Shown here: piece after piece, positions 1 to 40,156 of the stretch
How positions within the stretch are numbered: position 1 is the first letter of the stretch
Layout of the letters: each line of letters starts with the position of its first letter
Assembly: GCA_965178125.1 (NCBI GenBank)
Contig: OZ237742.1
Span: 620,001 to 684,000, forward strand
Source: Bilabrum cf. latius
Taxonomy: Eukaryota
Length of the DNA: 64,000 nt
Direction: 5' to 3'
Program-made: the position numbers and the translations under genes
Notes under the pieces: model-generated
Seen by the model: only the letters and a program-made list of their open reading frames with translations
What the model was told of the DNA's origin: nothing
Database searches by the model: none

Positions 1-3000
1 TCGCATGATCTCGTAGCACGATTTTCGATGGCAGTCCGATGCTTCCGCGTGATTGCTGCACTGCTAGTTGCTACTGCTGGGATGCATGGCAAGGAATCGG
101 CTTCTGATGCGAGCTCTAGATCAGCCTCAGATCCGCATTCGTAGCGAAAGTCAGAGTCAATGGCTGGCCTGCAACGCACAGAGCAGCAGGCCTGCGTTGT
201 AGAGCAGTGGACCCTGCCTACAATTTGCGTTGCGCTTGGCGTTGCGGAAAAGATGCTAGCAGTCGGGACAAAGATGCAGTCGCAGCGTTACAGAGAGGTG
301 TATGAGCAGGGTGGAGACACAGCAATGGATGAGGTTGGCACTGCGGAGAGCCAGCCGGGGCAGCGCGCTCGTGGGCAGATGAACCCTGCCGACGACAGCA
401 CTCCTTCGCACGCCCCAAAACAAACAGCTTCTCCAGTCGCCCATTCCAACTCCAGTCTCGATTGCATGCATGATCGTCATGTTTGCGAGGCGATGGAATT
501 CGTTGCACTCCTTGGTAGGGCCCTAACATGCTCTCCTGTTGGCTTCCGTGTTCTGCTTCGCTCCGGCGATGGAGACCCGCACAGCCCCAAAGCCCTGGCT
601 AGAACCGCGCTGGCGCTTGTACTACGCAGCTGGAGCTGGAGCCATGATGCATTTGCTCGGGTTTCTGCAGAGCTGCCTTTGCTTCCCGCTCACCCGGACA
701 AGCCGCAGCACTGGGCAGCAGTGCCTCCCGCCAGCAGACCCTCGGCCTCGAGCTGGCAGCTAGACCCCGGCAGCGACAGCGATGATGAAGCCAGCGCTTC
801 CATTCCGTTCTAGGGCTATGAAGGGATTAAGAGTTGGGCAGCTCCTGGAAGGCGGGGTCGCTCGGGCCGGAGAGGCTCGATTCTGGAGAAGAGGCACGTG
901 CGACGCCAACTATTCGCACTGGAGTCCTCGAGATGCACTCGACAGCTGGTTGCCGAGACACTAGGTGCTGCGATGGCTCATGATTAGTTGCAGACCAACA
1001 GAATTTTGTCTTCGGTAGGAGGCATGGGTTGGCGGAATCTAGGTCCGATCTCTGCGGCTGTGCCTGACAGGACGGCGTCAGAGTCTGCCGCCTTTGCCGC
1101 CATTCTTTGTTCGCTCGGTCTTGCGGCTTCAGGTGGCATTCAAAGTACATCTGCGTCTATCACTGGTGGCACGAGCATCCGAGATAAGCTATTTGCATGG
1201 TAGCCTGCCATGCAGGCTGCAGCCTATCCCTAGTCGGTTCCTTCTCTTGATGAAGCCCTGCACTAGCACGAGCTGTTCAATCCCGCGTTTTACTTCGAGC
1301 ACGACAAGGACATGGCAGCGGCAATAGCTGTAGCAGAAAAGCGAAAAGAGCAATCAGAGCTTGGTAGTGTTGATGTTCACGTGAAGCAGGCCTAGACTCT
1401 CTCGGCTGAGCTGCTGAGAACCCTGTCTGCTGAGAGGGTTTGGTTGCGTTCTGGCGTGTCTGCAGTCAGTCTGTCGCAGGATGCGCCTGGCTTTGGGGTA
1501 TCTGTTGCAGCGGCAGCCTCTGACGGATCGTTGCGGACCCAAAGCATGATCGGGGATCGCACAAGGTCCATCCTGGAGAAACTGTTGGAGCTGCAGAGAG
1601 GAGACCTCATTCAGAAATCAATGATGGGTACCTCAAACCGCGCAGACAAAGTCAGCGTTGCGGACAGGAGCACAATGGGTAGCGCATCGGCGTTATCCGC
1701 AGGAAGTTTCGATGCGCATGCTCACTTTGAACATGATGGGAGCTTGCCTCTGCTGTGCCGTGGCATTTTGGGAACGGACGTATCAGTCAACTCGATGTTT
1801 TCGGCCGCTCTAGCTGCGACTGGTGCTTGGTCAGAGATTCGAAGCGCGACTCACACCATGTCTCGACTCGCCGCAATTAAAAGCTTTCACCAGAATGCTA
1901 GGCTTGCGTCCCTAGTCGCCAATTTTTGGGGCCGGTCAGTTGATTTTAGGACCCCACTAGCAACGAGCCAGACCGCCAGACCCCGAGCTGGCTTGCGCTG
2001 GCCAATGCGCCAAGATCCTGGCCGTGTGTTCCTGAGACATGCGGGCTTGGGTAGCGCCATCAATGATGCGTTCATGCACGCAGGTATTTCGGGTAGTGCA
2101 AATTCTGGTTCGATTGGAGTCGGCGGAGATTAGCAGCGTGGTAGAGGTGTAGATGTTCATGACTCGAGACTGGAAGTAAGTCGATTTGAGAGCATGATAC
2201 AATCTGCAGCCGGCCTGCTTGGTCGAACCATATGGTTCGCAGTTATTGCACGAAATGCGGATCTCCAAGAAGACGAAGCTCCTGGTCGTGGTCGGACGGC
2301 TTACACACTTGCTGCGATCGAACGACTGCAATTGCGAAGGGGCCTACTAGGTAGCATTTCATCTGCACCGCCTGCATTGTTGGTAAAAGGCTATGTAGCC
2401 GCCTGCAGGTTGCCTTCACCTGAACCTGTATCTCCGAAAATGTGTGCAGCCATGTGCATGCAATTATCAGTGTCACTGTTGCGGCACAGCATTGCAAGCG
2501 AGAGATACAGAGATGCTTTGCTTGCCGCGTGCTCCATGCGACAATTGCTCAAGGCAAGCGTTGAAGAAGACAATCAAATGGATCCACCAGTTGTCCGTGA
2601 CTTTGTTGACATGATTGCTCCCCTTGTGCGAGTCTCGACCCGTCTACGTGCAGAGCTATTCGTTGCTGGGTAGTTGCAGCGATCAAGGGCAGAAGCAATG
2701 ATCGCCACTTCAAGGCTCAAATCTGCGCAATCTACTCTAAGACGAGCCTCACAGGAGCTCTTGGCGTCAAAGACCACAACAGGAAGCGATAGCGGCTTTC
2801 CACCGGGCAAGATGCACTCCTCGAGAATCAGCGCCGACGAGGCGCAGCGTCGCACGAGTGTGGCAGAGGACCAAGCCAGCACAGCTGCGCGCGCTCTCCT
2901 GAAGGCAAGGGGCAGATTGATGAGCGCTCGCAAAGGAGCAGGCAGCTAGAAGAGCAGTATGACCGTCCGGAGAATGGCAAGGTAGCTTTATGGTGTCACC

Positions 3001-6000
3001 CAGTTGCTTTCAGCTTGCTTTGACGTGCTGAGAGCACGACTGGACTTGCTTGAAGGGGGTCATCGGACGGCGGACTTCGCCCTCGACCTCATGCATGCTG
3101 TCTCCCCTCTTGTACGAGCAATGAACATGAGTACTGAGCTTCCTATGGTCTCGTCTGCACTGGATCTATTCTGGAGGTTATGTCGGGTCGTGCGGCAATT
3201 CGATCCGCATGGCTCGTTTGTTCACCACGAGGTCATTGAGTCGATGGTTTGCACCAGCCGATGGGCGGCTTGCATGGCTGTGCTGGCCAACAGCGTGCTA
3301 AAACCGGCGCTCTAGAGTAAAAGCATGGGGCTGGAGCGGTCGACGGGCGTGCAAGGGGCTGGAATCAGCTCTGACAAGAAATCTCCTGGCCATGCTGGAC
3401 ATGGTGCAGTCGAAGCATCAGATAGCAGCGCAGGAAAGCTTTCCGAAAGCAAAGATGCGATATCAGCATGCAAGCAGCTTTTGGCAGTTGATTCTGTCGG
3501 CGATCAAGTAATGTCGCAGCTTCTAGGTTCTCTGCAGAAGTGCTGCAGCCCTATTGGTGCGATGCAACCAGATGAGATCGCCCACGTGATGCTAGTCTCT
3601 CTCATTCGGCAGCTGCGGCGAGTCCTCGTCCGGGACACAAGCGTTAATGGTATTTTAAACGTGTATCCATGGCTGACAATAGAGTAGGCTGGCGCGGCTC
3701 AATTAGCAGTTTCTCGCAAGCCGTGCGCCCCTTTTGATCCAACTCTTGGCGACTGCGTGCTGCTTACTGGCATCTCACTTGGCTCATTGGATGCTACAGG
3801 AGGTATCTCTGCCGGTGATAAAGCTTTAAATGAACTGATTCATGGTCCAAGTGAGCAGCTTCGAGCCATTCCAGAGTCCGTACCTGCAGGTACTAATGCG
3901 TCATGGGTTGGTGCGAGTTGCGGGATGCATGGAGGCGAGGGACTGCACAGGATCATTCGAGAGTGTTGTGCTGCTATATGGGCATCGTTACACTTTAGTA
4001 GCGCTGCTGCTGACATTGTGAGTACAGAGACAGTTCCACGGGCGATTGCAACTGTATTGCGGCCGTGCGGGCAGCAGTTTGCTGAGGCATACGAGTTGCT
4101 GCAGCGCGCTCCTGACGAGCCGCGAGCGGAAGCTGCTGACAGCAAAGCAAACAGATCAACATCACGCAGCTCGAGAGGGCCTCGCTTTGAATTCCACGAC
4201 AAGTCGGTTTTCTCATTCCCGTCTAGCGGCCTGACATCGAACCAGCCGTCCGCTGCGTTTGACCGCTTTCGCAAGACGCACTATTCGCACTTCAAAGGAT
4301 CTGATGCTGCGCCAAAGGAGACGGATGCAGGACTTGGAGGCGTTGACTTAGACGCGTCTCCTTCCTTCACTAGACACAGGCGACGATTGTACGATGAGAC
4401 AGCCCCGTATTTGCTTGGACAGGGCTCTGCAGACATTCGCAAGACCCGGGAGGCGGTTCATGCGGTGTTAAAGCGACGAGACCTGAACAAGCTAGGTCGA
4501 AGCGTATTGGTTCGTTCTGTGCATGACCTGCTATCTAGTTTGGGCCGGGGTAGTGGAACCGAAGCCATTGAAGCGGCTGCCCAAGCTCTGGCTCGGGTAC
4601 GGCCGGTGCAATCCGAAAAGATTGTGCTGGACGGCATGGAGCCCTCTGCGGTCATGTTGAATGTGTCAAAGTCCTTGGTGCTGTGGTATCAGGACATGAG
4701 AAAGGATGGTATAACTTCAGATACTCGGCCGTTAGACACATCGCCGGTTCCACAGCACGTTGAAGGGCCGATCAGCTGTTCAGATGCCATTCGAATCTAG
4801 AAATTGGGATCCGAGTCGGCAGCGCTTGCCGGTGGTGAAGGTGATGCACCCATAGAATTTCCTGAAATTTCTTCGATTTCTCCCTTCTTCTCGGACGGTG
4901 TTGCCCACTGTGCTCTTGAGGCTGCGGCTTCCATGTGCAGTGCCATGGCTGCCAAAGCTGACGCGATCTCAGTCGTCCATTCAGTTGGGTTTACTGCATC
5001 TTTAGGACTCTGTGCGGCCAACGTGTTCTGTTCAGCGAAACTCAGGGTTCGCTCCGCCGAAGTGCTCTGGATGCTACACTTAAAGTGGAGATCCATCCAG
5101 CAGCGATCACTGCGGGCTAGCCAGGACCTTGCGCACTCCGTGAAACGAAGCAGTGCCACCCCGCAGGGCAAGAGCAGCGGCAAGGACGGAGTACTTCCAA
5201 CCGTTCTAGGAGTTGCGCAGATGCTGCTTGGCTAGCACAGCCTATGGAGAGCAGCAGCACACCTGCTCCGTGCGATTGGTATGTCACCTCGCAACGTGTG
5301 CATGCCGAATGCGGTTCGACAACGGCGTGTTTGCACGCGCAGTGCGCTTTCTGCTGAAGCGCCCTTGTTGGCAGCCAAGCTTGGGTTGGCTAACGAGCGC
5401 ACCGAATCACAGTCACCGGCGCTGGATCGATTCGCAAACGGGGTCAGTCGTGCAGCTTGGAACTCACAGATTGATGTGCAGGAGCGATGTGCATCATTGC
5501 TCGCTGGCATATCCGCAGAGATAGGCCATGGCAAAGGCGACAGCGGATGCAGTGGCCGAGTTATAGCGGTGGTGTAGCGCACAAAGAAATCGCTTCGTTA
5601 GCTTGCCACCGAGGATTGGGAGGACAAGCACATGAACACATCTGCAGTCGTTGGGCAGCTTCACAGAACCATTTCACTCCTTTTAGTGGTACTTGTAAAT
5701 CTTTCGGCAGATGACCGCTTCAAGTCATCCAGCAAGAGTGCCATACTATCCATCTTTGGCATGGCGTACCCGGTCAGCCGATTCAAGCCTTTAGTAGGCG
5801 GTGGGCACTTGCACCTCAAGCCAAGGCTGCCACCAGCCATTTAGTCCCTGGCAATGAAGCTGGTGACCAATCTTACCCATTCGCCGACGCACAGATCCCT
5901 CGTGTATCGTAGCGAGCTCGCGCACCGAGCCCGCATCGCAAGAAGTGAGCATAAACGGACATGGGCGGTGGATGAAGAAGACTGGAGGCTTAAGCAAGTG

Positions 6001-9000
6001 GACCGAGCAGCAGCTGTGTTTGATCCGAGCTCCACTGATAGCGAGGTCGATGATCCCCTAATCGATGCTCAGGCAGGTATAAAGCTCAGCCGGCAGATCG
6101 CCACCAGGAAACAGGCTCGGGCCCGGGACGTGGAACGCCTACCTCCACACTCTTCAAGCTAGCTTTCTGAAAGCGCCATGCTCCGAATCGAGTCTCGCCC
6201 GCTGCAATGCATGATGCAGCGACCCACTCTGGATAGAAGGGTTATTGTCCGGCAAGAAGAGCTTGAATCCACCCCAACTGACGTGATTCATGTTGAGAAG
6301 GCAAGTCGATCGACCCGGCCCCGCTCTGCAAGACTTCTTCGAGCGAAAGGGACCACAGTATCAGGCACTAGTGGACCAGTTGCTGCTAGCTATTTTGATG
6401 CGCGCTCTGGCTAGTCTCCGCAACCCAATTAGTATACGCTGGCGCCTGGTCCACGACGACCGACGAGTGCCCGCCCGATTCGAAGCTCGCCGAGCGTGAG
6501 CAGGAGCAGGAAGCGTGCTGGTATTCCAAGCTCTCCAATGAGAGTGAAGCCCTTGGGCCTTCGACCAGCCTCGGCTCAAATCGGACTACAGCGACAGTCC
6601 AGCGCGATACTAGATTCTCACAATGCGACTACCTCTGAGTTTTAGTCGCGATTGCGCTGGGCACCAGACGTAACTGCGGTGTCGGCTGGTGGACAGACAC
6701 TGCGAGCGCGCCGAGTTGCAAGCGCGTCGATCGAGCAAAACCTCGGAAATTCTTCTCAATTTGGAGTTGTGCAGGATGGTGCCTTGCAAATTCGAGCAGG
6801 ACAGAGTGAGAACGTGGAGTTTGAGGGTACTTTCTTGGCATTTGGACACGTGCTGCGTGAGTCTAAGGTTGTGGATGAGGGTTCGAGGCAGACTGGCGCC
6901 CGGATATCCACTGCTGCATCTGGTGACGAAGTTCGAAAACGTCGATTCGGTTTTGAATCGCCAAATCGCTCCGCGAGGCAAAGACGCGAACTTCTGGGCA
7001 CGTTCGATGACGACGATGATGACTCTGTTGCAGGCGGGGATGCGGCTGATCATGGCACCCCTGCCAAGCTGATTCACTCTGTGAGACTCTCTCGAGAAGC
7101 TGCCATCGATTCTAAGGACGCCACAGATAGCATCGCTCCAGCAGAATAGGTGCTAGTCGCCACGCATTCGGCAGTGAATGCTGCAGCGTAGGCGTTTGTC
7201 TCAAGAAGAAAAGGCCGTCACGCTGCCGCGAGCCCGATGCGATTTCAGGCCAAGTTCAAAAATGAAGCCAGTGGTGATCAACTCGCCGCGTCTGGTTCTT
7301 TGCGAGACCCCGACGATATCGAGGCAGACCGTAAAGCATTCGGTGGTAAAAGCTTCGAAGTTTCGACCGGGTCAAAGCCTGCAGTACGACGACCTCGTGG
7401 GTCCGAGAATCCAGGCACCGACACGCTGGCGCCGTTCCTTCGCCGACAAGCCAAGAACTGCACCCGTGCTGATGCACTGATCGCTGATGCGCTTGGACTA
7501 GATATTGCACATGAGTCGCAGGCCTTGGGCGGCAGAACAAACAGGCTAGTCGCGCCGTCGGTGGAGCAGGTGCCTGGCATCCATGCCGTGGGCGAGCACG
7601 TGATTGATGGCAGCGGCCACGTCAGGTACTATCCTAAGTCTTAGACGGCTCCAAAGCTGGAGTTTGAGGCCAAGGTGTAGCACGATCGGGTGATGAAGTT
7701 CACGTTCGGCTCTGAGAAGCGTGAGCATGCAGATCCAGCGTCAGCGCGTCATGGACTTGGCGGCTTCAGCAAATCTGCTGCATCAGAGCGCGAGTCTGCT
7801 GGCCCGCACCTGTGGGCGTTCGAGGCACATGAAGGTTCTCGTATCGCAGAAGAGGCGGGAATCCCTTCGCAACGCCTGCCGAATGGACGTTTGGTGAGGT
7901 ATTATTTCCGGTCTGACGTTCACCGGGCCGTGTACCAGCACGATGGCACGCCGGCAAGCTTCCCCTCGGACCCATTTGTCGATTTGAGGCGTCTGCAAGC
8001 TGGGCCATCTGACACCAACATCGGCATGCTACTTGAGGACTGCCCGCTTTTGCCGATGCATCGCATGGATGAGCGTCGCCTGCCTCCCATTGGCTCATTG
8101 CTGGACCCCAATTCACCCAGATGGCGCAGCAGGCCGTGGGCGCGCGGTCTTGTGCTCCCCAGTCCGTTCGAGGGCAAGCTACAGGTGTATTTTGACGACA
8201 AGTCTTACAGCGTCCCGTAGCTTCCTGCACTCCCGCGTGAAAAGCGACCGACCAACCTTGGTGCCAGGAAGAAGAAGGCGGTCGACAAGATAGTGTCTGT
8301 TTTCAAGCCTCGCTCGAGGGAGAGTGCATCCGGGACTCTCTTTACTGGAGAAGCAGTTGGGGCCAAAGCCATTCGACTCGAATGGAAGAGGCAAGAGCTA
8401 AAAGGTGCACTCTTTGTTATGGTCAATCGAATGTACAAGGAGGTGCGAGGGGGCTCTAGAGGAGCCACCGATCTTGGTCGCACCCTTGAAGTTCTGTGTG
8501 AGCCAGACAATGCTGAGCTTGTGCTCGCGGTGTTCGATCTGTACGCCGCAGTCACCGGTGGCACCGACACGGATGCGTTCCTCACGCTTACCCAGGCAGG
8601 TTTTCACCTGTTTGCGGCCCATGCTGGCATTGTGCAGGTGCCCGGGGTGCAGCCATCCAGCGCCGGCAGGCGTTTCAGCAAATTTGCTCTCAGAAGCAGC
8701 GATCTGGACACTGTGTACATCCAGGCACATGTGCAGACCAAGCGGTTGTAGGATGCCAGGGCCATGAAAGCAAGCAGGGCAATCGGAATTCGGCCCGCTC
8801 CTCGCTCAGGATCTGTTGCAGCCACTGGACGGTCTTCAACATCAAGTGCATCCGCTGCTCGAGGCAGACAGGCAGGCCAAAGCAGCCCCGCTGCAAGGCA
8901 GGGCTCGCCGACCCGCGTATCATTGCCACCGGAACCTGCCGATCGATCGCTGCATCGCTGGTAGTTCATTGAGAGTCTAGCCCGCATCGCACACGACATG

Positions 9001-10302
9001 TACGTCAAGTCCTCGCAAGAGCGGTCGTTAGCGGGTGCGATGCGGCGGTTGCTGAGCCAGGACCTTAGAAGGCGTCTACCGTTCTTCGTGCAGATTGCTG
9101 GCGATCGGTACAGGAAGCGGCGCTTGTACACGCTGGCGGTCGATGATGCCATCAGACCGCACCTGCAGACGCTACGAAGGCTCCACACTACATACGCCTC
9201 GCCTGACGCGACATTTACTGTGGAAGTCCCAGTTCGTCGCGGCAAGGCGCTCCTCAAGGCCGTTGCAGGAGCACTGCGAATGCGACTGGCGATGCTAGGC
9301 GCAAAAGGGCTCAAGCAAGGGGCGGGTTCTGGCAACAAGCCAAGTGGTGGGCTGCTTGGGGCCGTCGGGAAAGTGGCGGCAGCTCAGCAGATACCTGCTG
9401 CTGATAGTGTGAGCGAAACAAGTTCGACTTCAACTCCGAATACTCGCACAGTGAGGATGCCACTGATGGCTCTGGAAGGCTTCATGAGGCTGATGCATGA
9501 CGCTCGCGTTGTGGACGGGGACCTCACAAAGCGAGACATCGTCCTTGCGTTTACATTTGCTCGGCTTAGACGACCCGATCCACTGAGGGGATCGGGAGAA
9601 ATGCAGCGCTCTACGCATCTATCATTCATGGACTTCCTCGAGGCGCTGTGCCGAGTTGCAGACTCCCATACCCTACCGACGCACGAGGAAATGCAGGCAG
9701 CTGGCGTGCAGGATCCCAACGAGTATTTCAAGAAGCTGGACGCTGCCGGACTGCCTCGGCCGAGGCGACCTTCAGGGTCGTGGGTCGCCCCGAAAACGCG
9801 GCCGCTAGGTGTGAAGGTCCAGCTGTTCTTGGATCGACTGATGGGCGGCCTAAAAGATCGCGTGGCAACGCTTCGTGACAGCGACTCCAAGATCAAGTCT
9901 GCCCTAGTCCCAACCCCGGCTGGCGGGCTCGCAATTCCAGCTGGTGCCCTCGCTGGAATCAAGGATCCAAAGAAAGCCGTCGAATTTGTGCGTGCAGCCG
10001 CCGCGCTGGCTAGCCGCGCTGCACGAGCTAGGGAGGTTTTAGCCTCAAAGTCAAGGTCCTCCGACCGCAAGCAGCAGCAAATTGTGCTAGATGGGGATGG
10101 TAGAGCCAGCTAGGGGGCCGTGCACAGCTCCGGGCCACGTATTCTGCTCGAGGGAAGTTCTAGTGCGAACGCGCGACGCCGAGGGTCCGTCGTGATCGGA
10201 GCTGGAGACTTGGCCAGGCTGGCCAGCTCGGTGCAGGGTGCTGATCTTGCTAGTAGGGCAGGTGTTCGACGAAGGGTCGGACACAGGAGGCAGTCTGTTT
10301 GA
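1..10302 (+). CDS. Giant uncharacterised protein (>3,433 aa, starts before the window) with C-terminal EF-hand-like helical motifs
   Basis: Frame 1 is open from base 1 to TGA at 10300-10302 except for 30 TAG codons (e.g. 142, 811, 985, 1201, 2131, 4798, 8962, 10111). There is no TAA/TGA and no frameshift, and ORF-track pieces 160..813 through 10120..10302 share this frame. C-terminal motifs LAVFDLYAA, SLHRW[Q]FIESLARIAHDMY, MALEGFMRLMHDAR and LSFMDFLEALCRVA resemble degenerate EF-hand-type helices. Function not assigned. Confidence 0.85.
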
Positions 10303-10444: not shown

Positions 10445-13175
10445 TCAGTAAGTTGGGGCAATTCCAGCAGCCCTTAGCTGCTGCCGAAGCCGGTCGGCCT
10501 TGACTGCCAGCAGCTTCGACATTTCCACGCACACTTCCAGCTCCTGCTTGAACCCATCCGCGCCGACCACCCGCCGTTCTGTGGAAGGGTCATCAGTCGA
10601 TAAGCCCGGCGAGTCAAGGAGCTTCTTGCAGTTGTCTACTACCCACTTAAATCCCGCCTGCGCATCCACGCAGTCCCTGACACGGCCAGCGGCCGTAGGA
10701 TCCAGCCTCTTGTTGACGAGGTGGGCCACCACAAATGCTGCGTTCAGGTAAGCCATGGTCGTCCCGCTGTCAATCTCCGTGGCGCCAACGAGCGGCTTGT
10801 CCTAACTGCCGCCAGCGTATCCCCCGTCCGCAAGAATGCTAGGCTGCTCTTTCGCAAGCACAGCGTCTCTCATGACATCTTGGATCAGGTCCGCCCTCTC
10901 TGATATGCAACGGGGTACTGGGGGTCCACCGGCTGGCAGCCGCTTGTCGCTAAAACATCTCAAGAAGTGCAAGTTGAAGAAGATGGCTCGATCCACAACC
11001 TTGCACAAGCCGTTCAGCTCGCCGAGACTGGGTGCCTTTTGCGATTGCTCGAAGGCGTCATCCACCAGCTGCATCTTGATCTCTGCGGCCTCTCGCGCTG
11101 CCATGGCACACTGGTGCGATAGTTCTTTGTGGTTCACGATGAAGATGGACGGGTTCAGCACACCAAGCAAGCCTGCCTGCAGACCGACCCGCCGCAGGTG
11201 CATGGCCTGGGCGCGCTGTGGCGTGGACTCAAAGCCAACCAAGCAGCGGTAGAGCCCAGCCTTGTCCTCCTGGATCCGTACATAGTCCGTGACAAAGCCG
11301 TCCAGCTTGAAGTACTTCAGTGCCGTGGCGAAGTGGGCATTCGCCCGTTTGAAGTAGGTTCGGGCCTGCGGGAAGCTGTTGACGTCTTTAGGGGTCGGGT
11401 GCTTGGGATCAAGCGATGGCGGGGTGGCCGGTGGAGTCGTCTCATCTGCACATTCCTGCATGAATGACGCGAAGGGAAGAGCTACTTCGGACGGGGCGAG
11501 CAGCCGCTCGCCCTCGCTTAGCTTGCTCTCTTCGGCTCCCGATGATGGGGCAGACGTGCCTCTGCTTCCCGCTCCCTCCCCAGCCCCACCAGCGGGGGGC
11601 GATTTCGTCTCCACCTCGTCCTCCAGATCCGACTCGGAATCACCTATGTCAACATCAAAGTCGTCGTCCTCAGCGTCATCATCGGCGCCCGTGCCCGATG
11701 CAGCAGCCCCAGAACCCGACTCAGACCCGTCTCCAGGGCGCAGTGGCATGTCAGACCTCGTCCTAACGTTGGACGCGGCTTCAGCCAGGGGAACTGGCAC
11801 GGCCATGCGACGCCTTCTCTTGTAGAGCATGCCCTCCGTCCCTGCAGGCCCAAGTCGATCGGCCTTGATCTCCTCCTGCACATCCCTCTCTCGGGCGGTG
11901 TCCAGCACGTCCAGAAGCAGCCTACCGCGGTAGAGGCTGACCTCCGCGGTAACCCTCTTCGCGCGGTCTCCGACCTCGACGCTACCTGGAGAGATGTCTT
12001 CGACCGATGCAGCGGATGTGGCCTGCATCACGTCCAGCGTTCGCTGCTGCTTGTGGTGCTGCAGCATGCACTCCGCAGCACCGAGACACCTTGCCGCGTG
12101 CTGCCACCATCGCCGCGCCTTGTAGAAATTGCAGAGCCGCACGGCGTTTCTAGACCACTCGATCCGGTCGATTGATGCGCCGATGGTGCTCTTCGTGTCT
12201 GCGGCATCATCCCCCGGGCTATGCTCCGCCGCTGCCAGCTCATCCTGTCCATCTGCCGAAGCATCGCTTCGCGTGACAGCCATATGAGGCGACGAATAGC
12301 CAATCAGCTACCGCTCCAACGTGACTCGGACATATCTCGATGCTGCACTGGTCTCTTGCATGCTAGCGTACACTTGAGCGTAGTAGAAGGTGGTGTGCGT
12401 GTAGGCTGCCTCGAGCTGCAGCGACAGCTCATGCAGCCTGGCTGGTGGCACCGGGGCTGGTTCACCTGCTCGGCCTACCTCGTGTGCCGAAGGGTCTGCT
12501 AACACCACAGCGCTACTCCCGCCTTTGATGTCTGAATCACCATCCTTTGGAACAGCAGGCGCTTGCTTGAGCAGCGGAAGAACTTCGGAATGCACTCGCT
12601 TCGCAAGCCGCAAGTGCTTCAGGGCCGCCCGGGGCCGTGACCACCCAGTTAGAATGAGAGACCTGTGCCCACAGGCACGGATTATGTCGCTCGCAAAACC
12701 AACAATTCCACAAATCAGGGGAGCACTGTCTGCTGGTGCTTTGCGTGATCTGACGGAGCCAAGCAGTGCGGCCAGCACTGGCATCCCCTTCTGTAAAGAC
12801 TCGCCAATCTGCCTATCGCCAGTCGTGTTTTCTTCCGTGTCAATGAAATTGATACCCTTGCGGAGCTTTATCCTTGTGCGCAACAAATCAAGATCCGGGA
12901 TGTCAGCCGCAGTGGAAGCGGCTGTTTCATTGAGGGCTTTCAGCTGCCCATCCTACGGTTATGCGGGAAGGAGTGCAGTACAATCAAGTGTAGACGAATT
13001 GGACGTGAAAAAGCAGCTTTGAAACCTGGACTGTACTTACTAGAACTGCTCTAGCTTCGTACTTGAACTTGTACGGTTCTTTTTCAGGGGACACTTTGGC
13101 CTCTAGAGCATCGGCAGACCTAAGGTCGTTCTAGAATGAAAAGTACAATTCATTCAATTCGTGAGCACCTGACAT
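10445..13175 (-). CDS. KIFBP: KIF-binding protein (KBP/KIF1BP) homolog, 2 exons (13175-13041, 12952-10445)
   Basis: Exon 1 MSGAHELNELYFSF[TAG]NDL...PEKEPYKFKYEARAVL matches the KBP N-terminal PEKEPYKSKYSARALL motif. Also YTHTTFYYAQVY...YVRVTLER[TAG]L, IEWSRNAVRLCNFY and YFKLDGFVTDYVRI. Three in-frame TAG (13131-13133, 12308-12310, 10802-10804); ends TGA at 10445. Confidence 0.93.
12953..13040 (-). other. Spliceosomal intron (88 nt, phase 0) in KIFBP
   Basis: GTAAGT donor and ...CCGTAG acceptor; removing it joins the conserved N-terminal motif in frame to the rest of the protein. Confidence 0.85.
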
Positions 13176-13285
13176 GAATCACGCAAACGATCAAAATGTT
13201 ATCAAGAACACTTTTCGTGGGCGAATTGAGTGGGAGAAGCAGTCGAACCAAACACGATTCCACTTTGGCGCACAACAGCCCCCCA
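13176..13285. promoter_or_regulatory. Putative compact bidirectional promoter (KIFBP / C9orf78-like)
   Basis: Head-to-head start codons about 110 bp apart with an AT-richer spacer. Inferred from geometry only. Confidence 0.45.
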
Positions 13286-14689
13286 ATGCAAGGCACTGAC
13301 AGCGCAGATATTAGCAACTTGTTCAAACCGCGGAAAACGCGAGCGGGAAAGAAGAGAAAGCGTCGGGCGAGGGAAGATGTGGCATAGCAGCTCGACAACA
13401 CCGGCTCAAGCTCGACTGCCGGTCTGGAGGACCAGGAAGAAGAAGACAGGCGCAGGTTGCTGATTCGAGCGGTAGCAAGTAATGTTGCTACCGGCTTGCG
13501 TTCCGCGTCCCACGTCGGGCGCCCGTCTGGGCCGCCGATGAAGAGACCTAGGGCAACCGCTGGTGCCTCTAATCCACCAGATAGCGACATACCGAATGGC
13601 AAGACAACCGCGGGCGCTAGTACGAAGCAACTAGGCGCAACATTCTAGTAGGGCGCTGGTCTGCAGGGCACGCACGGAAGCGAGGATACTGGAGACTTGG
13701 ATGCTACAGACCGCGCTAGGCGTGACCGCTTTGTGCAAGAACAGCTCAAAAAAATGGCGAATGGCAGCAAATCTCCCAATAGCGAAGCGAGCAAATAGGC
13801 TGTAGGTGGGGGCAGTTCAGAATCTGGTGCGATGGATGGATAGCTTCGCGGCATCGCTGCTCTTCGAGAGCTGGAGCGAAGCAGCGACACGTCCTTGTTC
13901 GCGGAACCAGAGGCCGTGCGGCGAGCGAGGGCTGCAGCCAGGCAGGAGCAGCAGTCCAGAAGGCTGCCCCTTGGTCCCAGCGGGGCCCCGTACAGCCACT
14001 CGTCATCCTCATCATCATCATCCTCCGCACAGGGAGCGCAGAAAGAAGACTCAACTGGTGCTGGTGCTGGTGCTGCCGACGCTGCCGACGGCGACGTGGG
14101 GCAGGGAGGCATGCTAGCATACAATACGGGTCTGGCGGAGGTTGAGCTCCCGGCGGAGGAAAGGCTCAGAGTCATCGCAGAGACGGAGCGAGCGCTGGCA
14201 GCCGCTCAGAAGAAGCGAGCACAGGCGGAAGCCGATGCAGCAGCTCTGGCGGAGCGCGAGGCAGAGGCACAGGGAGCGATCGGGGGCGAGTCGGGGGTGG
14301 TCACCGAGGCAGGGGCGAGCGGTGATGCCGTTCGGTTCTCGGGTTCGAGCGTTGCCGCGGATTTCACCAAGCACCGGCGGGCCTTCTCGTACAAGATGCG
14401 GTCGAAGGGAGCGAGCGCCAGGCTGTTCCGTAGGAAAGAGGAAGCGAGGCGTCTGAGGGCCCGTGGGGAACACGCGAGGGCAGATGCGATGGAAAAGGAC
14501 GCAGAGGAGGAGGCCAGGCGAGCCATGGTGGCGGCGCAGGAGGCAGAGCGGAAGGCTCTGCACTGGGAGGACGAGCACCATGGGGGGGGTGAGGAGGAGG
14601 CCGGCGCGGCGTCCAACCGGGCCTCTGCCAGCGACGAGCAGCTGTTCAACCGGATTAAGGGGCGGACTTACATGCGAAGGAGAGGTTGA
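13286..14689 (+). CDS. C9orf78/Tls1 (hepatocellular carcinoma-associated antigen 59 family) splicing-associated protein
   Basis: One frame with 5 TAG (13385, tandem 13646+13649, 13796, 13841), ends TGA. Basic N-terminus (FKPRKTRAGKKRKRR), DRFVQEQLKK, TGLAEVELPAEERLRVIAETERA and C-terminal ASDEQLFNRIK resemble family motifs. Alternative in-frame ATG at 13196. Confidence 0.75.
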
Positions 14690-14854
14690 TTGCTCGCTGC
14701 ATCATTTATTTGCGGTGCATCGCCGTGTATAGAGGCCCCAAACTTCCACCCACAATGTTGCAGAGCTGTGCGGAACCTGTCGGCGATGCTATGCGCGGCG
14801 CTGCCAGGAAATATCCAGCTGCGGTTTGCCATTCGCGCACCGCCTTCTTGCACG

Positions 14855-16726
14855 ATGGGCCACGAAGGATGGCTGTGGAAACTAGGATCATCCACAATGA
14901 TGGGTAGGAGCTACAAGAAACGGTGGTTCGTGTTGAACGGGGCCATGCTAACCTACTTCGCTGACGAAGGCATGGCGAAGCCTCTTGGAAGCGTAAATCT
15001 AAAAGCCTGCACACAATTTGGAGCAGCAGACCCCTCCAAGCATACATCGTCATCCGTTGCTAGATTTGCTATCTACGCCTTGGAAATTGCCACGCCAAGC
15101 CGAAGTCTGGTGATCATTCCCGAGTCTGGCGACGATCAAAGGCAATGGACGAGACAGGTCATGCGCCAAGTACCCCAATCTGCATTATCGGATACGCTGC
15201 CTGTATTGAAGGCTGGATCTCGCAAGGGAGACGGTCCTGACAGCGACGATTCCGACGCTGGGGAATCCAAACGGTCCGGAGGTAGCAAGAAACAAGTTCG
15301 TCTGAAGGGCAGAACATCAACTGCGTTGGTTCCAGTAGACAGCGACGACGAGGATGGAGGTGCGAAGGTTCCGCTGGCGGGCGTACTAAGGCAGCAGAAC
15401 GAGTAGCAGGAAGAAATTGACGAGCTGCGCGCCGAGCTCGCGCAGCTACGAACAGAAGCGAGCAGGCGCGCCTCGAATGCCTCTTCGATCGGGGCACCCC
15501 TCCTCATCAGCGACTCTGATGGGGATACTTCTGGAATCAGCGTGGCACCGCGAGGTTTTCTAGACAGCGAGGACGAGGACGACGACGATGACGAGAAGCT
15601 GGACCCCACCTGCTGCTGCGGCCTCTGCTGCCGCTGCTGCGGGACGTGGAACTGGAAGGTGCTCTACCTGGCCGTCGCTAACGTGGTCGTGCTGGCGCTG
15701 GGCCTGATCATCCTCATCATGGCCGTGGTGGCGCTGAAGAACAAGGCGCAGTTCGAGCAGATTCTGCCCATCCTGGGCATCTACATTCTCCTGGGGACGG
15801 GCATCGTCACGGTGTTTGCAGCACCGGGGGGCACGTTCTGCGCAACGAGGCACAAGTCTGGGTGCGGCAAGATGGGCCTGGTGGTGTACTGCGGCATTTT
15901 GCTCGTGCTCGTGCTGGCCCAGGCGGGCACGGGGGGACTCATGGCGTCGCAGGGAATCATGCTCAAGAAATTCCACGTCAACTCCCAGGGCGAGGTATCC
16001 GGAGCCAAAAAGGGGCTCAACGCGTTCCTCGAGGACGTCTGCAAGCACTGCTGCTAGAATTCGAGCACGGCTCAAGGCGGTGTGGGTGCCTCTGGTCCTG
16101 GCTCGTACGGCAGTGCTGCTGCTGCTGACTGGGCCGTGCTTTCGGGCGGCAACCAGGACCTGGTGCATCCCGAGGAGGGCACCTTGCTTCGGGGCAGCAC
16201 GCAGCCATCGTCCCGCGATGCCGTGGATCTCTCGGTGGACGAAGGCCTTGTGCCAGGGTATGCCTCGGCTGCAGGGCCTGGTGCCGATTCCAGCGTGCTA
16301 GATCTGTGGAGGAAGAAGAAAGGGGGCAGCGAGTGCTCGTGGATCCCTGCCAAGGTCAAGAGCAAGTGCTCCGTGGACGTCGTGGGGCAGTCTGGGTGCG
16401 ATGGTTTCTTGCACTCGCTCACCCATTGGCTGCAGCAACGGATCCTGCCTGTCTCTGGCGTGTGCATCGGGGTGGTCTTCATCGAGATCGTTGCCATCGG
16501 ATTTGCGCTCCGTCTCGTGTCTCCGTGGTGCTGCTCCATGGCCTGCCTCTGCTGCTGCTGCAAGAGAGGAACCAGCTCCGATGACAGCGATGATAGCGAT
16601 TTCGAGGACGATTACAGGAGCAGGCGGGGCTCCCGGAAGGGTGGCAAGCGGGGCCGCGGGGGAGGCAGCAAGCGCTCCAGGAGGAATTCGAGGAGGAGGG
16701 CTTCCACGAGCTCCGGGTTTTACTGA
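14855..16726 (+). CDS. PH domain + coiled coil + tetraspanin-like four-TM membrane protein (623 aa)
   Basis: MGHEGWLWKLG...SYKKRWFVL...LTYF...PLGSVNL...QRQW is a PH domain. The frame continues through TAG 15404 (RQQNE[Q]QEEIDELRAELAQL) into three clustered TM segments, a Cys-containing loop (CKHCC[Q], TAG 16055; SGCDGF) and a fourth TM. Ends TGA. Confidence 0.8.
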
Positions 16727-17658: not shown

Positions 17659-20600
17659 ATGCGAAACCTGCTTGCAATCATTCCTGCGGCATTTTTGCTA
17701 TAGGTGACTGCACACGCGGATCAGTCGGTGAATTTGGATGTTGACTGGCCTGAGTTTCTGGAACGGTCAGACATGCTGTTCAGCTGGGACTCGACGTCGT
17801 CGAATCAGCCCAATTCGTTTCGAAATGGTCCCTGGCATGGTAACGGTCTACTTGGATACGTTGCATGGTAGACCAACCAGTCCACGATGTACTTCGAACT
17901 TTCGCGAATGGATGTCTACGACGACCGCCCGTTTTCAGACAGAACCAAGGATAGCTTTGTTTGCCAGCAGCCTCGGCTCCCTATCGCTAGCTTTCAAATT
18001 GAATGGACTGGCCCTGTGAGGTCTGCTTCTACGAGAACCTCGCTTTGGAATGGCGAAACCACCTGGCTGATTTCGACCAATCAAGGCACCTTGTCCTTCA
18101 AGTCGCTTGCTAACTCTGATTGGAGAAAGGCAGACGTAATGGCGTTCCAGTTCAATTCTAGTGCTTCTGGGGCATTCACGGTCTCGTTGAATCCGAAGCA
18201 GGCGGCGTCAACATGGGCGCACAAGTGCCCGGACTACGAATACAACCCTCCCGCCGATGTCTTGCCCATTGGTCACGGACTGCAGGGCTCTGTGCTTCGG
18301 CAAAGGCATCTAATCAACACCTCTCATTCCACTGCAATGGCTATCTGGTCACCCTCCTCTGGTCCGATTGCTGTGGAATCAGGCCGAGCATCGCTGCCTG
18401 CCGGTGGGACCGAACTGGCCATCAGCATATCGGGGGTCACCCCAGACCTCGAGTCTTCCATCGTTAATGCAACGGAGCAGGTTCTGCTAGCCCAACAGCT
18501 TGGTTACGCTGGAGTCAGCGAGTTGAACGCGGCCTGGTGGCACGCATACTGGCCCAGCGGAGGTTTCATCACGCTGAACGAGTCCATCGTGGAGTCGTTC
18601 TACTACCAGCAGGTGAGCTAGCAGCGACAATATAGGTGCAACGATGTGCTCAAGAACGTTTTGAGTAGCGCACAAAGTAATGTACCACCTCATCATGCCA
18701 TTATTGCCCAATTGCACGCATCATGTTCCGCAGATCTTCAAGTTCGCATGCGCGGCTCGCGGAGACCGACGAGTGGTGCACGACCTGCAGGGGCCCTGGT
18801 TCTACGAGGGAACAGCATGGCCTGATTTGCATTGGGGTGAGCACAGTACAGCACGGCACGGCACCAGGTGCAGGTGCAGGTGCAGGCGCAGCCGCAATAT
18901 TGCACACACTTGCCGGTGGGTGGTCACTCCCGGTGGGTGGCCCGACCTCCCGATGACAGCTCGGTGCAAGATTACTCCATCCTGTTTTGCTCCAATGTGT
19001 TCATAGATGTTCCCACAAAATGGTATCCCCTAAGCTGCGTAACTCTTGCCTGCTCCACAACGCCTCTCAGATATGAACCTGCAGCTAACGTACACGCTTC
19101 CCGCCCGGGCCAACAGGCACGAGCTGGGAGACTCGCTGTGGACATGGCTCGCAGACGTGGCTCCAAGCTTCGAGCAGAACGTCAATTCGAGCTGGGCCGG
19201 GACCATGGCTGCCCCAGTGGGTGCCTCGAGTTTGAATGCCATCATGACGTGCTACTGGGACCACGCGGTGGACAACAAAGGAGACTGCATCACCGGCAGC
19301 CCATCGATTACCGGCAACCTGCTGTGGGTGCTGCAGGTCGTGTACGAGCAGTACCGCCGCGCCACTGAGACGTCGAGGACACAAATGCGCACATCAGTGT
19401 TCCAGCCTATCTTCCCCAAGGCAATCGCGTTTTATCAGAAGCTGATTGAGATGGGCGCTCACGACGGAGACGGCGTCCTGCACCTGCCCAAGACCTACTC
19501 CCCGGAATACCCCGGTCCCAGAGGCACCGACACGAGCTACGACCTGGCACTGCTCGAGTGGGCTCTGCAGACCGTGCTGGGAGACGTTTCTCTGGGCCTA
19601 TCGTCCCACCCCGGTGCAGCTCAATGGCGCTCCATGCAGCAGCACCTCACCCCCCTCGTCCAAGACGATGCGACGGGGTGGTACATCGCCCGCGACGTGC
19701 CGTTGGCCGTGTCGCACAGGCACTACTCCCACCTCTTCAAGGTATGGCCGCTGCAGACTCAGGATCTGCGGCCCGGTCAGACCGTGGAAAGCGAGCTGCA
19801 ATCGAGCACCGCGGCCCCACTGGGAGAGCTTGAAGGACTCGCGCTGGCTGAACGCAGCGTGGACCACTGGATCGGCATGACAGGCGCTCTCACTGGATTC
19901 TGCCGAGGCCCAGTCTCCTCCATGTCGGCCCTGATGGGCCGGCCGACCGGGTCCTGGACCAACGTCACGTACCTGCTCTTCAATTACATCACAGAGAACG
20001 AGATGTACTTCGAGTCGGGCGGGCCCTGCACGGAGACCCCTAGCGGGGGCGCCATGGCCCTGCTCGAGTCCATGATGCAGGTGCACAACGATACGATTCA
20101 CCTGTATAGAGGCGTGCTGGACCTCCCCGGGAGCAATTCGACCGACTCGTCGCACGCTGCAGCGTTCCATCAGCTCAGCGCCCCTGATGGTGTTCTGGTC
20201 ACGGCCCAGCGCGGCACCGTAGGTGCCGACGATCGCCCGCGCACTACCCTGGTCGGCATCGACGTTCACGCCGACGCACCCCCTCAAGGTTCGTGGGACG
20301 CGGTCCGCATTGCTGCCGACATGCCGGCCCCCAAGGATGGCGGGTGGCACCTGGCGTACGCGACGCCTGGCTTGGATCCCAGCAGCATCACGGTGGAGGT
20401 CACGCCCACCAGGGACCTGCCCGACCCCGAGGGGCAGGCCTTCGAGCGAGTCACCGTCACCGTGCGAGGACTCAAGCCTGGACAGGGGGCGGCATTCGAC
20501 GTGGTTCCGCCAAAGAACTCCCCGCATACTTCACCCCCGGAATCGGCTTTGTCGCAGCCCAGCATGTCTCCTGCAGCGGGGTGCCCCTCGCAGATGAACT

Positions 20601-21235
20601 ACTGGGGAGTGCGCAGCAAGAGCTCCGTGCCGGCCCTGATCGCACCCTGCAGCAACGGCACCACCGCCAACTCTTCGCAGCACTGGCAGTACGACGCGCC
20701 CACCGGCCGCTTCCTCCTCTCGGCCTCCGTGGAGGCGGGCGCCAAGCTCGTGTGCCTGACGGCCCCGTGCACGGATTCTCTCGCACACGTGGCCGGCGGT
20801 GCTCCCTTGGACGACCTGGCCACTGTGGAGCCGTGCGCGGACCAGTCTCCCCCACAGGTCAACATCGAGCCGCTGGCACCCGGGATCGCACACGCCGCCG
20901 CGACCACCAGCGGCGGTGCAGGGGGTGCTGCAGCGCAGCCCGGATGCTTCCCGTCCAAGTCCCAGCGGTGCAATGGCGTGAACCAGCAGTGGGACATCGC
21001 CAGCTCCAAGTACAACCCCTCCTCCAGCCTCCTCGTGACCAGGCAGTCCAGCGGGCAATGCCTGGGCGTTCCGGGGGCAGTCGGGCCCACGCTGATCATG
21101 TATGCGTGCGATGATCACTTTGAGCAGTTTGACAACGAGGGCTTCTTGGTGGATGCCGAGAAAAAGCTGCTGCTGTCGGCGAACTCGGGGCCGGGCTGGG
21201 GCCCGGACTACTGCGTGACCGCGGCGAGCTCGTGA
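17659..21235 (+). CDS. Secreted GH95-like alpha-L-fucosidase with C-terminal ricin-B/CBM13-like region, 3 exons (17659-18612, 18734-18836, 19071-21235)
   Basis: Signal peptide MRNLLAIIPAAFLL[TAG]VTAHA; VDWPEFLERSD, GNGLLG, FELSRMDVYDDR, FYYQQIFKFACAAR, DLQGPW, WPDLHW-DMNLQLTY, HLPKTYSPEY, SHRHYSHL, ENEMYFESGGPCTETP. C-terminal QHW/QQW motifs with Cys. TAG at 17701 and 17869; ends TGA. Confidence 0.85.
18613..18733 (+). other. Spliceosomal intron (121 nt, phase 0)
   Basis: CAG|GTGAGC donor and TTCCGCAG acceptor; joins FYYQQ to IFKFA. Confidence 0.85.
18837..19070 (+). other. Spliceosomal intron (234 nt, phase 1) containing a short (CAGGTG)n run
   Basis: G|GTGAGC donor and CCTCTCAG acceptor; joins LHW-G|AT to give WDMNLQL. 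Confidence 0.85.
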
Positions 21236-21804: not shown

Positions 21805-24800
21805 TCAATCAGGCCGGACGGCTCTCCTGAGACAGCCGAAAATCACCGAATGCTGCATCATCGCGGGGAAGGAGCAGAACGCCCACGCTGACGGCAGCCC
21901 GGTGATCAAGTCCACAAGCCCAAACACGGTCTGCAGCCCGATGTGCAGTACCAACGACACCCCAAGCACAACGTACGACAGCACACGAAGGCCGAAGCCG
22001 TCGAACACTGCGCGCTGCATGTATGAGTACGCCTGAAGCGCACTGATGGCCACATCTTCAGCGCTCAGGTGCCTCTAGTGCTCCGGCACGGGCTGAAGCA
22101 CCGGCTGCACGCCACCAGCCTGCGGGTCTGCCACGAGCTTCGCGCGACGCAGGACGCCGTTCTCTCCAAGATCGCCCTGGTGACTCGAGCAAGGCAGCTC
22201 ACCGTGCCTGCAGAAGCCTAGGAAAGAGGCGTGGAGCCTCAACACAAGTCCCATAATTAGCAGCATGCTCTGACTAATGGCGCTTGCCACCATGTAGCAC
22301 GTGATGAAGCCCAGGGACAGACCGAGTGCCACCACCCGAGTGGGCCCCCCAGCGTAAACGACGCCGATTCCAAACACGCAGATGAATGCAACCGCTGTGG
22401 CTAGCGCCCAGCGCCATGGCGGTGTGTCGATCAGCTGGTCCAGCAGGGTCGAGACGAACACGGAGCAGCACCCGGGCTAGCTCTGGCTCGCTGGCCCTGC
22501 CGCTGCCTTCAGAGGATTTGCTTTCCTATCGGAGTCTGCACCGCCCTCGCTGGTTGCGGTGCCGGCGCCATTTCCATTGCTGGTGCTGTTGTACAGCTCA
22601 TGCGAAAGGGGCGGGCTGCGGTTGGCTGGCTTCCTGCAGCAGCACAGGCATCCACAGGACTCCTCTTCTTCGGCTGGGTTGACGGGCCCGCAGCACCGGC
22701 CGCAGCACTCCGTGAAAGCCAGTGCGAGGGCCCACAGCAGCACGATTGACATGGCCGACCAGATGATTGTGCCCCAAACCGTCCACGTGTACTCGGCAGC
22801 CACCGCCGGCTGCGCGGCGCACAGCACCACCACGATGCCCCACGCCGCGAGCACCCGGACGAGCAGCCCAAGAGGGTGCCTGAGCTGCGTTTCATCCACG
22901 AACTGGCCCAGGACAAAGTCGGACTTCTCCACGGCAGCGTGCTTCACGGTGCCGTGGCCCCGAGCTGCGGCCTTGCGCTGGCCCAGCCTCAGAGTTTCCC
23001 AAGCCTCGCTCACATCGTCGAGAATGTTTCCCCACCAGTGAGGGCTGTAGGCGACGGACGACATGATTACCAAAATACCATTCAGCATCACGAGCAACCC
23101 CGAAATCGTGAAGAACCCGCTCGGCTGTACCGCGATTGTAGCCCCCGCGAGCGCAAACTGCAGGATGGATCGAAGCAAAAGCACCCAAGTGCCCTTGGCG
23201 ATGGTAAGCCAGCTCACGTGTCCACCGGACGGGCCGCGCCCAGTCGCAACATACCCCGCCTCTCCGGACAGGACGCTCGACACGATGGCGTATCCAACCA
23301 TCTCATTTGCAGTGCTGTGGTACAGGCAGAGAGGCGACCAGAACACCTCCTTGACCATGCGTGCGATCTCACCCTGCATGCAGCGGTCAATGATGACCAG
23401 CAGGACAGGCAGCGCCCCGGCTTGCAGCACCCACGGAGAGGCAAATGACAGGTATAGCCCGCCCAGCGAAGCAGACGTCTGGCCGGACAGAGAACTAAGG
23501 GCCAGAGCCAGCCCGAGTAGCACAGCCATGATGAAGCTAATCCCACTGGTGACAAAGTATCCGAACAGCGAGTGGAACAGTGCAAAGTTCTTGTGCATGC
23601 TCATCGTGAACGACAGCTGGTGCATGTCCCGGGATCGCATGACACCGCCGGACCCCGCTGAGATTTTGAACTTGAAGGACAGCGCGTTTAGGTACACCTC
23701 CTCTCGACCCTTGCCCCACGACAGCATGTCGCTGTGTCGGCTCGTGTAGCCCTTTGCTGCTACAATAAAGCCGCTAAACACGTCCTCGCTCAGGTTCAGC
23801 TGGGGCGATGCCTTGGAGAGAGCACCGGCGGCCCCTCGGACGTAGTGCGTGTTCCAAGCATCAGGATGCCCGTAGTGCATCCTCAGTCCCGCTAGCTGGT
23901 CAAAGACGCGCTGCTACAAACGGCCAAAAACGGACTCGGCCACCGCCTCGGCGGATCCCACTGGGCTGACGTCCTCTGTGACGATTTCTTCCGGGAGACC
24001 CACGAGGGTGACGGTGTTCGAGGGGTCGTCGATGTACTTGGCAACTCCGAGGTCCGCAGACCTGGGTGCCGGCACCCGAGGGTACATGGTCGAGCGCATC
24101 AGCAGGGGGATCTTTTGCGTCTCCAGGGCCCAACCGTCCTGGTTGCAATCGAGCGTGAAGCAGAAGTGGCCAGTCACAAAGCGGATACCCATGCTCTGGT
24201 TGGCTGCCTTGCCTTGGGTCGCCCACAAACCCTTGCCGAGACGCAGTGGCGCATGTCTCTGGATCATACGCATCACATCAATGTTGATCTGCTGCCTTTC
24301 CCCTTGCTACAGAGGAGACCCCGGCCATCGCATCTGGTCGTTAAGACTCCAGTCATTCGGGCGACCGGGACCGTCACGGTGCCGCACCCTGAAGGCCAAC
24401 GCAAACTTCATCTCACCAGTCGTCCGGATGTGTCGTTCAAGATCAGTATAAATCCCGAGGCTCGTGGCCTTTGCAAAAATCCCCCTCAGCAGAGCGTAGC
24501 ACAACCAACTGTCGCCATACCTGGCCTTGTAGTCGTTGTTGTTGATCCTTTCCAGGAGCTTGTCGAATGGCTACAATGCACCAGTCTCGCCCGCTTCTGG
24601 CTGGTCTTTGAGCCCACCTAGCTCAACGCTGGTAACAACCGTGATATTGCGACCCTTCAGTCTCGGGTGCGTTGCGAGCAGCCCAACGAGCCGATCGGCC
24701 GTGGTGGCGTTTCTGGTTCCCCCAATGCGACCCGGGGCCACATCGTTTCCGTTCCACTTCATTCCTCCAATCGTCTGATGACTCAAAACGACCTGGAAGA

Positions 24801-30444: not shown

Positions 30445-30795
30445 CAATGTCTTTGTTTCAAAGCAAAAACTCGGCTTGTGGCACTTGGGCTGATGACTCG
30501 CCTGAGAGTCGGCTGACACCGCAGACAGAGAGAGGGTCTGCGATACAAGTCTCATTTGGGTGGTAAAATCAAGTACCGTGCACCTACGGTATACCAGATT
30601 TAGCATGAATATGCCGATCTAGAGTCTGCTCGCCGCCCCAAACATTAGATGCGGCAGAAGCGAAATTTATGCGTAACCGTTTTATTTTGTTTCATTGGTG
30701 CATGCGCTGACGGCTTCGGCGGGCCCGGACCAGCCTGAGACTGGCAAGACAGAGTTGGCACCGCAACTTCAGTACAAGTGCACACTGCGTTCAGG

Positions 30796-33024: not shown

Positions 33025-33253
33025 GGCTGGAAACAGTTGAGCACGGTGCGTTGGCTTTCGTCGGAGTCTCGTTTAGAGTACTATCATTGTTGCGATCATA
33101 TGAAAGCCAACACGAATAGGCTTTTGCATAGAGTACAGATCTATGCATTTGTTTCGCGAAATCCGGAGCAGCGATTGGTATCGCCGTGCATCCCCACACA
33201 GAGCTCCACCAGTAAATTATTCGCACAAGTCGTTCAATAGCATAGCTTTTACC

Positions 33254-40024: not shown

Positions 40025-40156
40025 GACACAATTTAAGTTATCTTCAAAACGGATCGCATAGTATTGTCTTCATCTTTATTTCATGCGAACGTCGCAAAAA
40101 CGATCATTGATTTGTGTTTGGTAGGATATGTGCCTGCTTCAGACGATTGGTCTTCG
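40025..40156. promoter_or_regulatory. Putative compact bidirectional promoter (coiled-coil gene / HflX)
   Basis: Head-to-head ATGs about 130 bp apart with an AT-rich spacer. Inferred from geometry only. Confidence 0.45.

Follow-up and report, generated by a model that had tools for sequence, protein, structure and literature searches.

In-frame TAG codons that very probably stand for glutamine in a 64-kb stretch of DNA from Bilabrum cf. latius

In a 64-kb stretch of DNA from the eukaryote Bilabrum cf. latius (GenBank assembly GCA_965178125.1, contig OZ237742.1, positions 620,001 to 684,000 of the forward strand) TAG is a sense codon, and comparison with close relatives makes it very probable that its meaning is glutamine, interchangeable with CAG. 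This stretch, referred to below as the window, is the whole of the sequence analysed, and all positions are given on its scale. Large, tightly packed eukaryotic genes fill it, and its GC content is 58%, ranging from 55 to 64% along its length. The glutamine meaning had been proposed in an initial annotation made from the letters of the sequence, and it is supported mainly by glutamine at 10 of 10 comparable positions in a close relative, by the exchange of TAG for CAG at two sites in DNA, and by one conserved column of KBP (KIF1-binding protein).

Stop-to-stop frames were measured under four codes. The three longest comprise 861, 730 and 648 codons under the standard code, 861, 742 and 648 codons with TAA as sense, and 1070, 865 and 847 codons with TGA as sense; with TAG as sense they comprise 5296, 3433 and 2953 codons. 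The 14 main frames (19,672 codons) contain 133 TAG codons next to 586 CAG and 207 CAA, TAG thereby making up about 14% of the glutamine codons. These 133 in-frame TAGs lie within conserved protein-coding genes under selection, and in Pfam scans of the open reading frames (ORFs) of the window, with TAG masked as X, domains extend across TAG codons in the N and M domains of HflX and in the RyR and Ank domains. All nine TAG codons cited in the initial annotation were located where it had placed them, in frame within long ORFs.

The frames are under purifying selection straight across the TAGs. We compared positions 52950 to 57280 of the window with contigs of X10 and X11, two public sequencing runs (one of them labelled protist metagenome) that carry a relative about 8% diverged in DNA; 40 of the 382 differences were examined, and three of the 18 TAG sites there are readable at the DNA level. 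Synonymous changes account for 34 of the 40 examined differences, 33 of the 40 lie at third codon positions, and the only two indels among them measure 3 and 6 bases. Contigs of X6 and X7, which are runs from other studies, show no listed difference from the window. Were the TAG-interrupted frames pseudogenes or artefacts of assembly or sequencing, the in-frame stops under the standard code would be accounted for, but nothing else speaks for this explanation, and it has to contend with the preponderance of synonymous differences, with indels that keep the frame, with the recurrence of the same sequence in contigs of other studies and with TAG sites common to two species, so that we give it practically no credence. 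Four further organism labels carry at least half, or roughly one third, of the 31-mers of the window. Sequence data thus already exist for several strains or species that are closely related; no RNA run is among the sequencing runs listed as carrying window sequence.

The meaning of TAG is indicated most directly by the largest gene of the window, a giant channel ORF. A search with its protein returned five fragments of a relative that are 93-98% identical to the window protein and stem from standard-code protein prediction on public contigs. The features concerned are the following:

48108 to 63998, minus strand: giant channel ORF, at least 5296 codons long and open at the window end, with 49 TAGs and a TGA stop; contains two RyR domains, ankyrin repeats and a channel of TRP/polycystin-like type
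51144 to 59618, minus strand: span of ten TAG codons paired with glutamine in the relative (starts at 59616, 57258, 56853, 56835, 53520, 53214, 52515, 51804, 51579 and 51144), covered by fragments P0271, P0272, P0273 and P0275 (93-98% identical)
49596 to 59483, minus strand: span of four TAG codons (59481, 53196, 50862 and 49596) common to window and relative, each directly preceded by the end of one of the relative's standard-code fragments

At all ten window TAG positions that the fragments span, the relative has Q, and the flanks are identical at nine of the ten; over non-TAG positions the proteins agree at 1671 of 1749 residues (95.5% identity). Seen from the other side, glutamines of the relative pair with Q (67), TAG (10), E (2) and H (1) of the window only, and never with L, Y, W, K, R or S. 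The initial annotation had argued against Leu, Trp, Tyr and Glu in part from distant homologues, and that part of its argument proved not to be decisive; by the close-relative pairs, these four residues are excluded as the meaning of TAG. Four of the five fragments stop exactly before a window TAG, so that the TAGs at these four fragment ends are shared with the relative. Gene callers using the standard code break up the genes of Bilabrum cf. latius, and the relative's public protein fragments stop precisely where TAG codons stand.

The DNA of the relative points in the same direction. Positions 53216 and 53522 show A>G on the plus strand in both X10 and X11, which turns TAG into CAG, while the relative keeps TAG at 53196-53198, no difference being listed there in X10 or X11. 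A change of the first base is found in two of the three readable TAG codons (both to CAG) versus 3 of 206 other codons (hypergeometric p 0.0014). For fragment P0271, 365 pattern matches were obtained among metagenome contigs of the Joint Genome Institute (JGI), none of which was confirmed.

As for the giant ORF itself, one uninterrupted frame joins the ankyrin repeats and both RyR domains to a TRP/polycystin-like pore, whose best PDB matches are TRPC6 and TRPV3 (E about 1e-3). A homologue of 2016 amino acids, P0276, is encoded on a public contig and shows 23-35% identity.

Among the TAG columns of distant homologues only one is a conserved glutamine, and it belongs to KBP, the gene of which is composed as follows:

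10445 to 12952, minus strand: KBP exon 2; Pfam KBP_C (E 3.7e-45) matched to the last profile position; TGA stop at 10445-10447
12953 to 13040, minus strand: KBP intron, GTAAGT ... TAG, placed by frames and splice signals; its acceptor TAG at 12953-12955 is not a codon
13041 to 13175, minus strand: KBP exon 1, 45 codons from ATG, containing TAG at 13131-13133

Human KIFBP is the sole PDB match of exon 2, and this match continues across the joined exons 1 and 2; exon 1 has as its only PDB match residues 21-43 of human KIFBP (E 0.046), with an alignment spanning residues 23-45. In an alignment of 124 homologues of at least 400 amino acids, out of 150 listed (MAFFT), the codon in TLER-TAG-L (12308-12310, minus strand) falls in a column with Q in 119 of 120 occupied cells, the flanking L, R and L columns are conserved, and human KIFBP has Q, just as the initial annotation had stated. 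Fragment P0121 of KBP (96% identical) stops directly before this codon. The second TAG of the gene, in FSF-TAG-NDL (13131-13133), had been put forward as a conserved glutamine as well, a view that its variable column (E 22, D 16 and Q 3 of 91) does not sustain.

Two further pairings within the giant ORF agree with glutamine. The TAG in RyR repeat 2 (56853) aligns with a Q of repeat 1 (E 3e-6), as had been noted before, and the TAG of the pore (50862) pairs with a Q of TRPC6 (E about 1e-3). For the latter a pairing with PKD2 had been proposed, which we could not confirm: PKD2 chains match weakly (E about 0.02), and the four aligned chains are all TRPC6. The TAG at 59616, paired with Q in the close relative, had been assigned to a UBR box, but searches of Pfam (E up to 10) and of PDB sequences with positions 59439-59741 yielded neither zf-UBR nor any other convincing match. 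Likewise, the TAG of the ankyrin motif G-TAG-TPL (56286), offered as a further glutamine column, turned out to be uninformative, the position being occupied by E, K, W, L and Y in the other repeats of the protein.

Codon context adds a weak sign of a glutamine meaning. A CAG or CAA neighbour is present at 16 of 134 TAG codons (0.119), a rate second only to that of glutamine codons themselves (106 of 803, 0.132). Both instances of TAG inside glutamine runs pointed out in the initial annotation were seen, namely CAG CAG TAG CAG at 27223-27225 in the glucan synthase (minus strand) and TAG CAG CAA CAG at 41567-41569 in HflX (plus strand).

Several observations weigh against glutamine or limit the evidence for it, and most of them come from three further genes of the window:

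40037 to 42649, plus strand: HflX-type GTPase ORF with 8 TAGs; Pfam GTP-bdg_N, GTP-bdg_M and MMR_HSR1
21805 to 30666, minus strand: 1,3-beta-glucan synthase-like ORF of 2953 codons with 18 TAGs and a TGA end; Pfam Glucan_synthase, E 5.6e-46
30739 to 33024, plus strand: SNM1/DCLRE1-type nuclease ORF with 6 TAGs and a TGA end; Pfam DRMBL

Four TAGs of HflX (40604, 40631, 40682 and 40724) fall in the conserved N and M domains, where an alignment of 119 mostly bacterial homologues shows columns led, in this order, by R (69, with K 32), E (59, with L 18 and Q 18), R (106) and T (84, with K 17), and Q is found in 5, 18, 9 and 4 of the 119 sequences. The third of these columns is that of D-TAG-QRGG, which the initial annotation had regarded as compatible with glutamine and which is dominated by arginine. 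A tally of homologue residues at TAG columns, which had been suggested as a check, accordingly gave glutamine for TLER-TAG-L of KBP and other leading residues for HflX. Yeast FKS1 has F at FGRL-TAG-QR of the glucan synthase; of the nuclease's TAG columns two can be aligned with human SNM1A, which has D at one and P at the other. When BLOSUM62 scores are summed over those TAG columns of HflX and KBP that are usable, six in all, arginine comes slightly first (R 8.91, Q 8.73, K 6.22, E 5.29). Finally, the fragments of the relative are an ascertained sample, as fragments predicted under the standard code span only those sites at which the relative has no stop; the 10 of 10 therefore shows what TAG exchanges with, and not how often.

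These columns have to be read together with those of genuine glutamine codons. Most of the true CAG and CAA codons of HflX and KBP likewise fall in columns where K, R or E leads, and because they do, TAG columns led by R, K or E are compatible with glutamine while lending it no support. Among PDB chains, the best match of HflX has Q at three of the four TAG columns, and E. coli has K, R, R and T. Fragment P0001 of HflX (91% identical) starts seven residues past the fourth of these TAGs. Taken alone, the distant homologues thus fit glutamine but cannot separate Q from R or K. A different amino acid such as Arg, Lys or Glu would suit the leading residues of the HflX columns and the narrow lead of arginine in the BLOSUM62 sum; this assignment is nevertheless highly improbable in view of relatives that have Q at all ten TAG sites in proteins 95.5% identical, of relative glutamines that never face R, K, L, Y, W or S in the window, and of the KBP column with its 119 glutamines in 120 cells.

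With TAG very probably meaning glutamine, termination falls to TGA as far as the window goes. TGA closes each of the 14 main frames, and neither TAG nor TAA closes any, although one of these TGA ends (18823-18825) may fall in an intron of the GH95 gene and not at a gene end. For two proteins the C-terminus is anchored by a Pfam profile matched through to its final position, and in each case TGA follows; one is KBP, the other is encoded by the following gene:

45401 to 48016, plus strand: V-ATPase subunit a, last exon, with a TGA end; Pfam V_ATPase_I, E 3.4e-210, profile matched to the end

These anchored C-termini also bear on the possibility that TAG is ambiguous, meaning glutamine inside genes and serving as a context-dependent stop at some gene ends, as in Condylostoma or Blastocrithidia-type codes. 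Only 14 gene ends are available, and several TGA stops are followed, 3 to 33 codons on, by TAGs, which would leave some room for such a code, but none of the 14 ORFs ends in TAG and both profile-anchored proteins end in TGA; we regard an ambiguous TAG as quite unlikely.

TAA is absent from the 19,672 in-frame codons, whereas it occurs 47 to 71 times per frame over the whole window. In other codon pairs (TTA/TTG, CAA/CAG, AAA/AAG and GAA/GAG) the ratio of A-ending to G-ending codons is 0.15 to 0.54, from which about 20 to 70 TAA codons are predicted if TAA were a glutamine codon used like other A-ending partners. Because none was seen against this prediction, TAA is no ordinary sense codon in the window; with as few as 14 gene ends, it may be a rare stop or an effectively unassigned codon. 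The same figures have to be set against the code in which UAA and UAG (UAR) both mean glutamine (NCBI table 6), with TAA nearly unused through GC bias and TGA as the only stop. That code would account for 14 of 14 ORFs ending in TGA and none in TAA, as expected of a sole terminator, and also for a departure from the described codes that reassign UAG alone, in which UAA is the dominant stop according to PMC5304391 and PMC11687900. It is difficult to reconcile, however, with no TAA next to 133 TAGs where some 20 to 70 are predicted, and with frames of 5296 and 3433 codons free of any TAA; we consider it improbable, if less so than an ambiguous TAG.

The use of TAG differs between genes. In the giant ORF and the first ORF of the window about 20% of the glutamine codons are TAG. 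The V-ATPase a exon has no TAG versus 36 CAG/CAA in its Pfam-matched part, which its single TAG precedes, and the second GH95 frame (19043-21235, plus strand) has no TAG versus 36 CAG/CAA. Such uneven use, seen in few genes, would fit a codon that is read less efficiently, and low TAG use may mean that genes with high expression or conservation avoid the codon.

The window is very probably nuclear DNA from a GC-rich, intron-poor eukaryote that uses UAG as a standard glutamine codon and terminates translation at UGA. By analogy with a prediction in PMC5304391, a tRNA-Gln whose anticodon is CUA, reachable from tRNA-Gln(CUG) by a single base change, would decode UAG, and eRF1 would no longer recognise UAG. 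UAA would then have been left outside the sense set because a CUA anticodon cannot read it. Within the window itself ARAGORN and Rfam found no tRNA, Rfam gave no other family either, and Pfam scans revealed no eRF1 gene.

The remainder of the window contains several other genes and features. The Pfam scans also gave a PH-domain protein and a GH95-like glycosidase. The first frame (1-10302, plus strand) comprises at least 3433 codons with 30 TAGs, is open at the window start and matches no Pfam family at E up to 0.001. The frames 13178-14689 and 14690-16726 (both plus strand) share a reading frame and are separated by a single TGA, with the PH domain in the second; they are probably two close-packed genes. 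Intergenic gaps can be as short as about 70-80 bases (30666-30739 and 33024-33104), and the divergent frames of HflX and 35948-40069 overlap by 33 bases (40037-40069). In the SNM1-like protein three tandem copies of the 10-residue GRASGSSGPP are located between the nuclease domains (31750-31850, plus strand). Cysteine clusters (CCxCC, CCCGCC, CCCCCW) beside hydrophobic segments recur in several unrelated proteins of the window, for example at 49000-49200, 51500-51650 and 54900-55050 (minus strand) and also in the glucan synthase and in 14690-16726; by their sequence they resemble possible palmitoylation sites.

V-ATPase a provides a hint of the affinity of the organism. The best of the 120 matches listed in a search with this protein shows 45% identity; the named eukaryotic matches come from diatoms, oomycetes and a chrysophyte and show 31-36% identity, and one higher-scoring match at 40% identity is labelled 'archaeon' by its source. 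By these matches the window may be related to stramenopiles. Tentatively, and as a possibility that we rate below even, the window may represent an undescribed, possibly stramenopile-related protist lineage in which UAG means glutamine, UGA is in practice the sole terminator and UAA is neither sense nor stop, that is, effectively unassigned, with at least two species about 8% apart sharing in-frame TAGs, a combination unmatched by published cases. The open-licence PMC and bioRxiv literature, taken without supplements, contained no description of a UAG = Gln code that we could find for stramenopiles, labyrinthulomycetes, GC-rich or recent protist genomes, which does not prove that none exists.

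As a code change this is of a known kind; what appears new is the lineage, together with the pattern of TGA as sole terminator and TAA out of use. A nuclear code in which UAG alone of the stops is reassigned to glutamine (NCBI table 15) has been described for the fornicate Iotanema spirale (PMC5304391), and a UAG-only glutamine code for the ciliates Hartmannula sinica and Trochilia petrani and for Protocruzia tuzeti (PMC11687900); different fates of UAG and UAA are also named there for a rhizarian and for Scotinosphaera (PMC5304391, PMC11687900). The window resembles these organisms in that UAG means glutamine and UAA is not sense, and also in that TAG is a minority glutamine codon, with about 14% here and about 8% in I. 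spirale (PMC5304391). It differs from them in its terminator, UAA being the dominant one in those organisms (PMC5304391, PMC11687900), whereas 14 of 14 frames of the window end in TGA; moreover, the window has 58% GC, and its best named V-ATPase a matches are from stramenopiles and not from ciliates or metamonads.

Codes in which both UAA and UAG mean glutamine (table 6) are, according to PMC11687900 and PMC6299283, found in many ciliates, in Hexamita and Streblomastix, in ulvophycean green algae and in the aphelid Amoeboaphelidium protococcarum. They share with the window UAG as a glutamine codon and TGA as the only terminator seen, but UAA is a sense codon in them, while the window has no TAA in 19,672 coding codons. 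Amoeboaphelidium was considered as a possible source and rejected: its genomes have 40.5% and 39.9% GC (PMC10608142, Table 1) versus 58% in the window, and no named aphelid protein was among the 120 listed V-ATPase a matches. The code 15 of phages and giant viruses also gives the same codon the same meaning, TAG being glutamine; the window, in contrast, is cellular eukaryotic DNA, with a GT..AG spliceosomal intron, a channel ORF at least 5296 codons long, and genes for a glucan synthase, KBP and V-ATPase a. Nuclear codes that split the fates of UAG and UAA are rare, and another case arising independently, in a protist with a GC-rich genome and few introns, would be one more observation on how UAG becomes detached from UAA. 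The case described here has close relatives at hand for comparison and TGA instead of TAA as its terminator, and it bears on the existence of an unassigned-codon stage.

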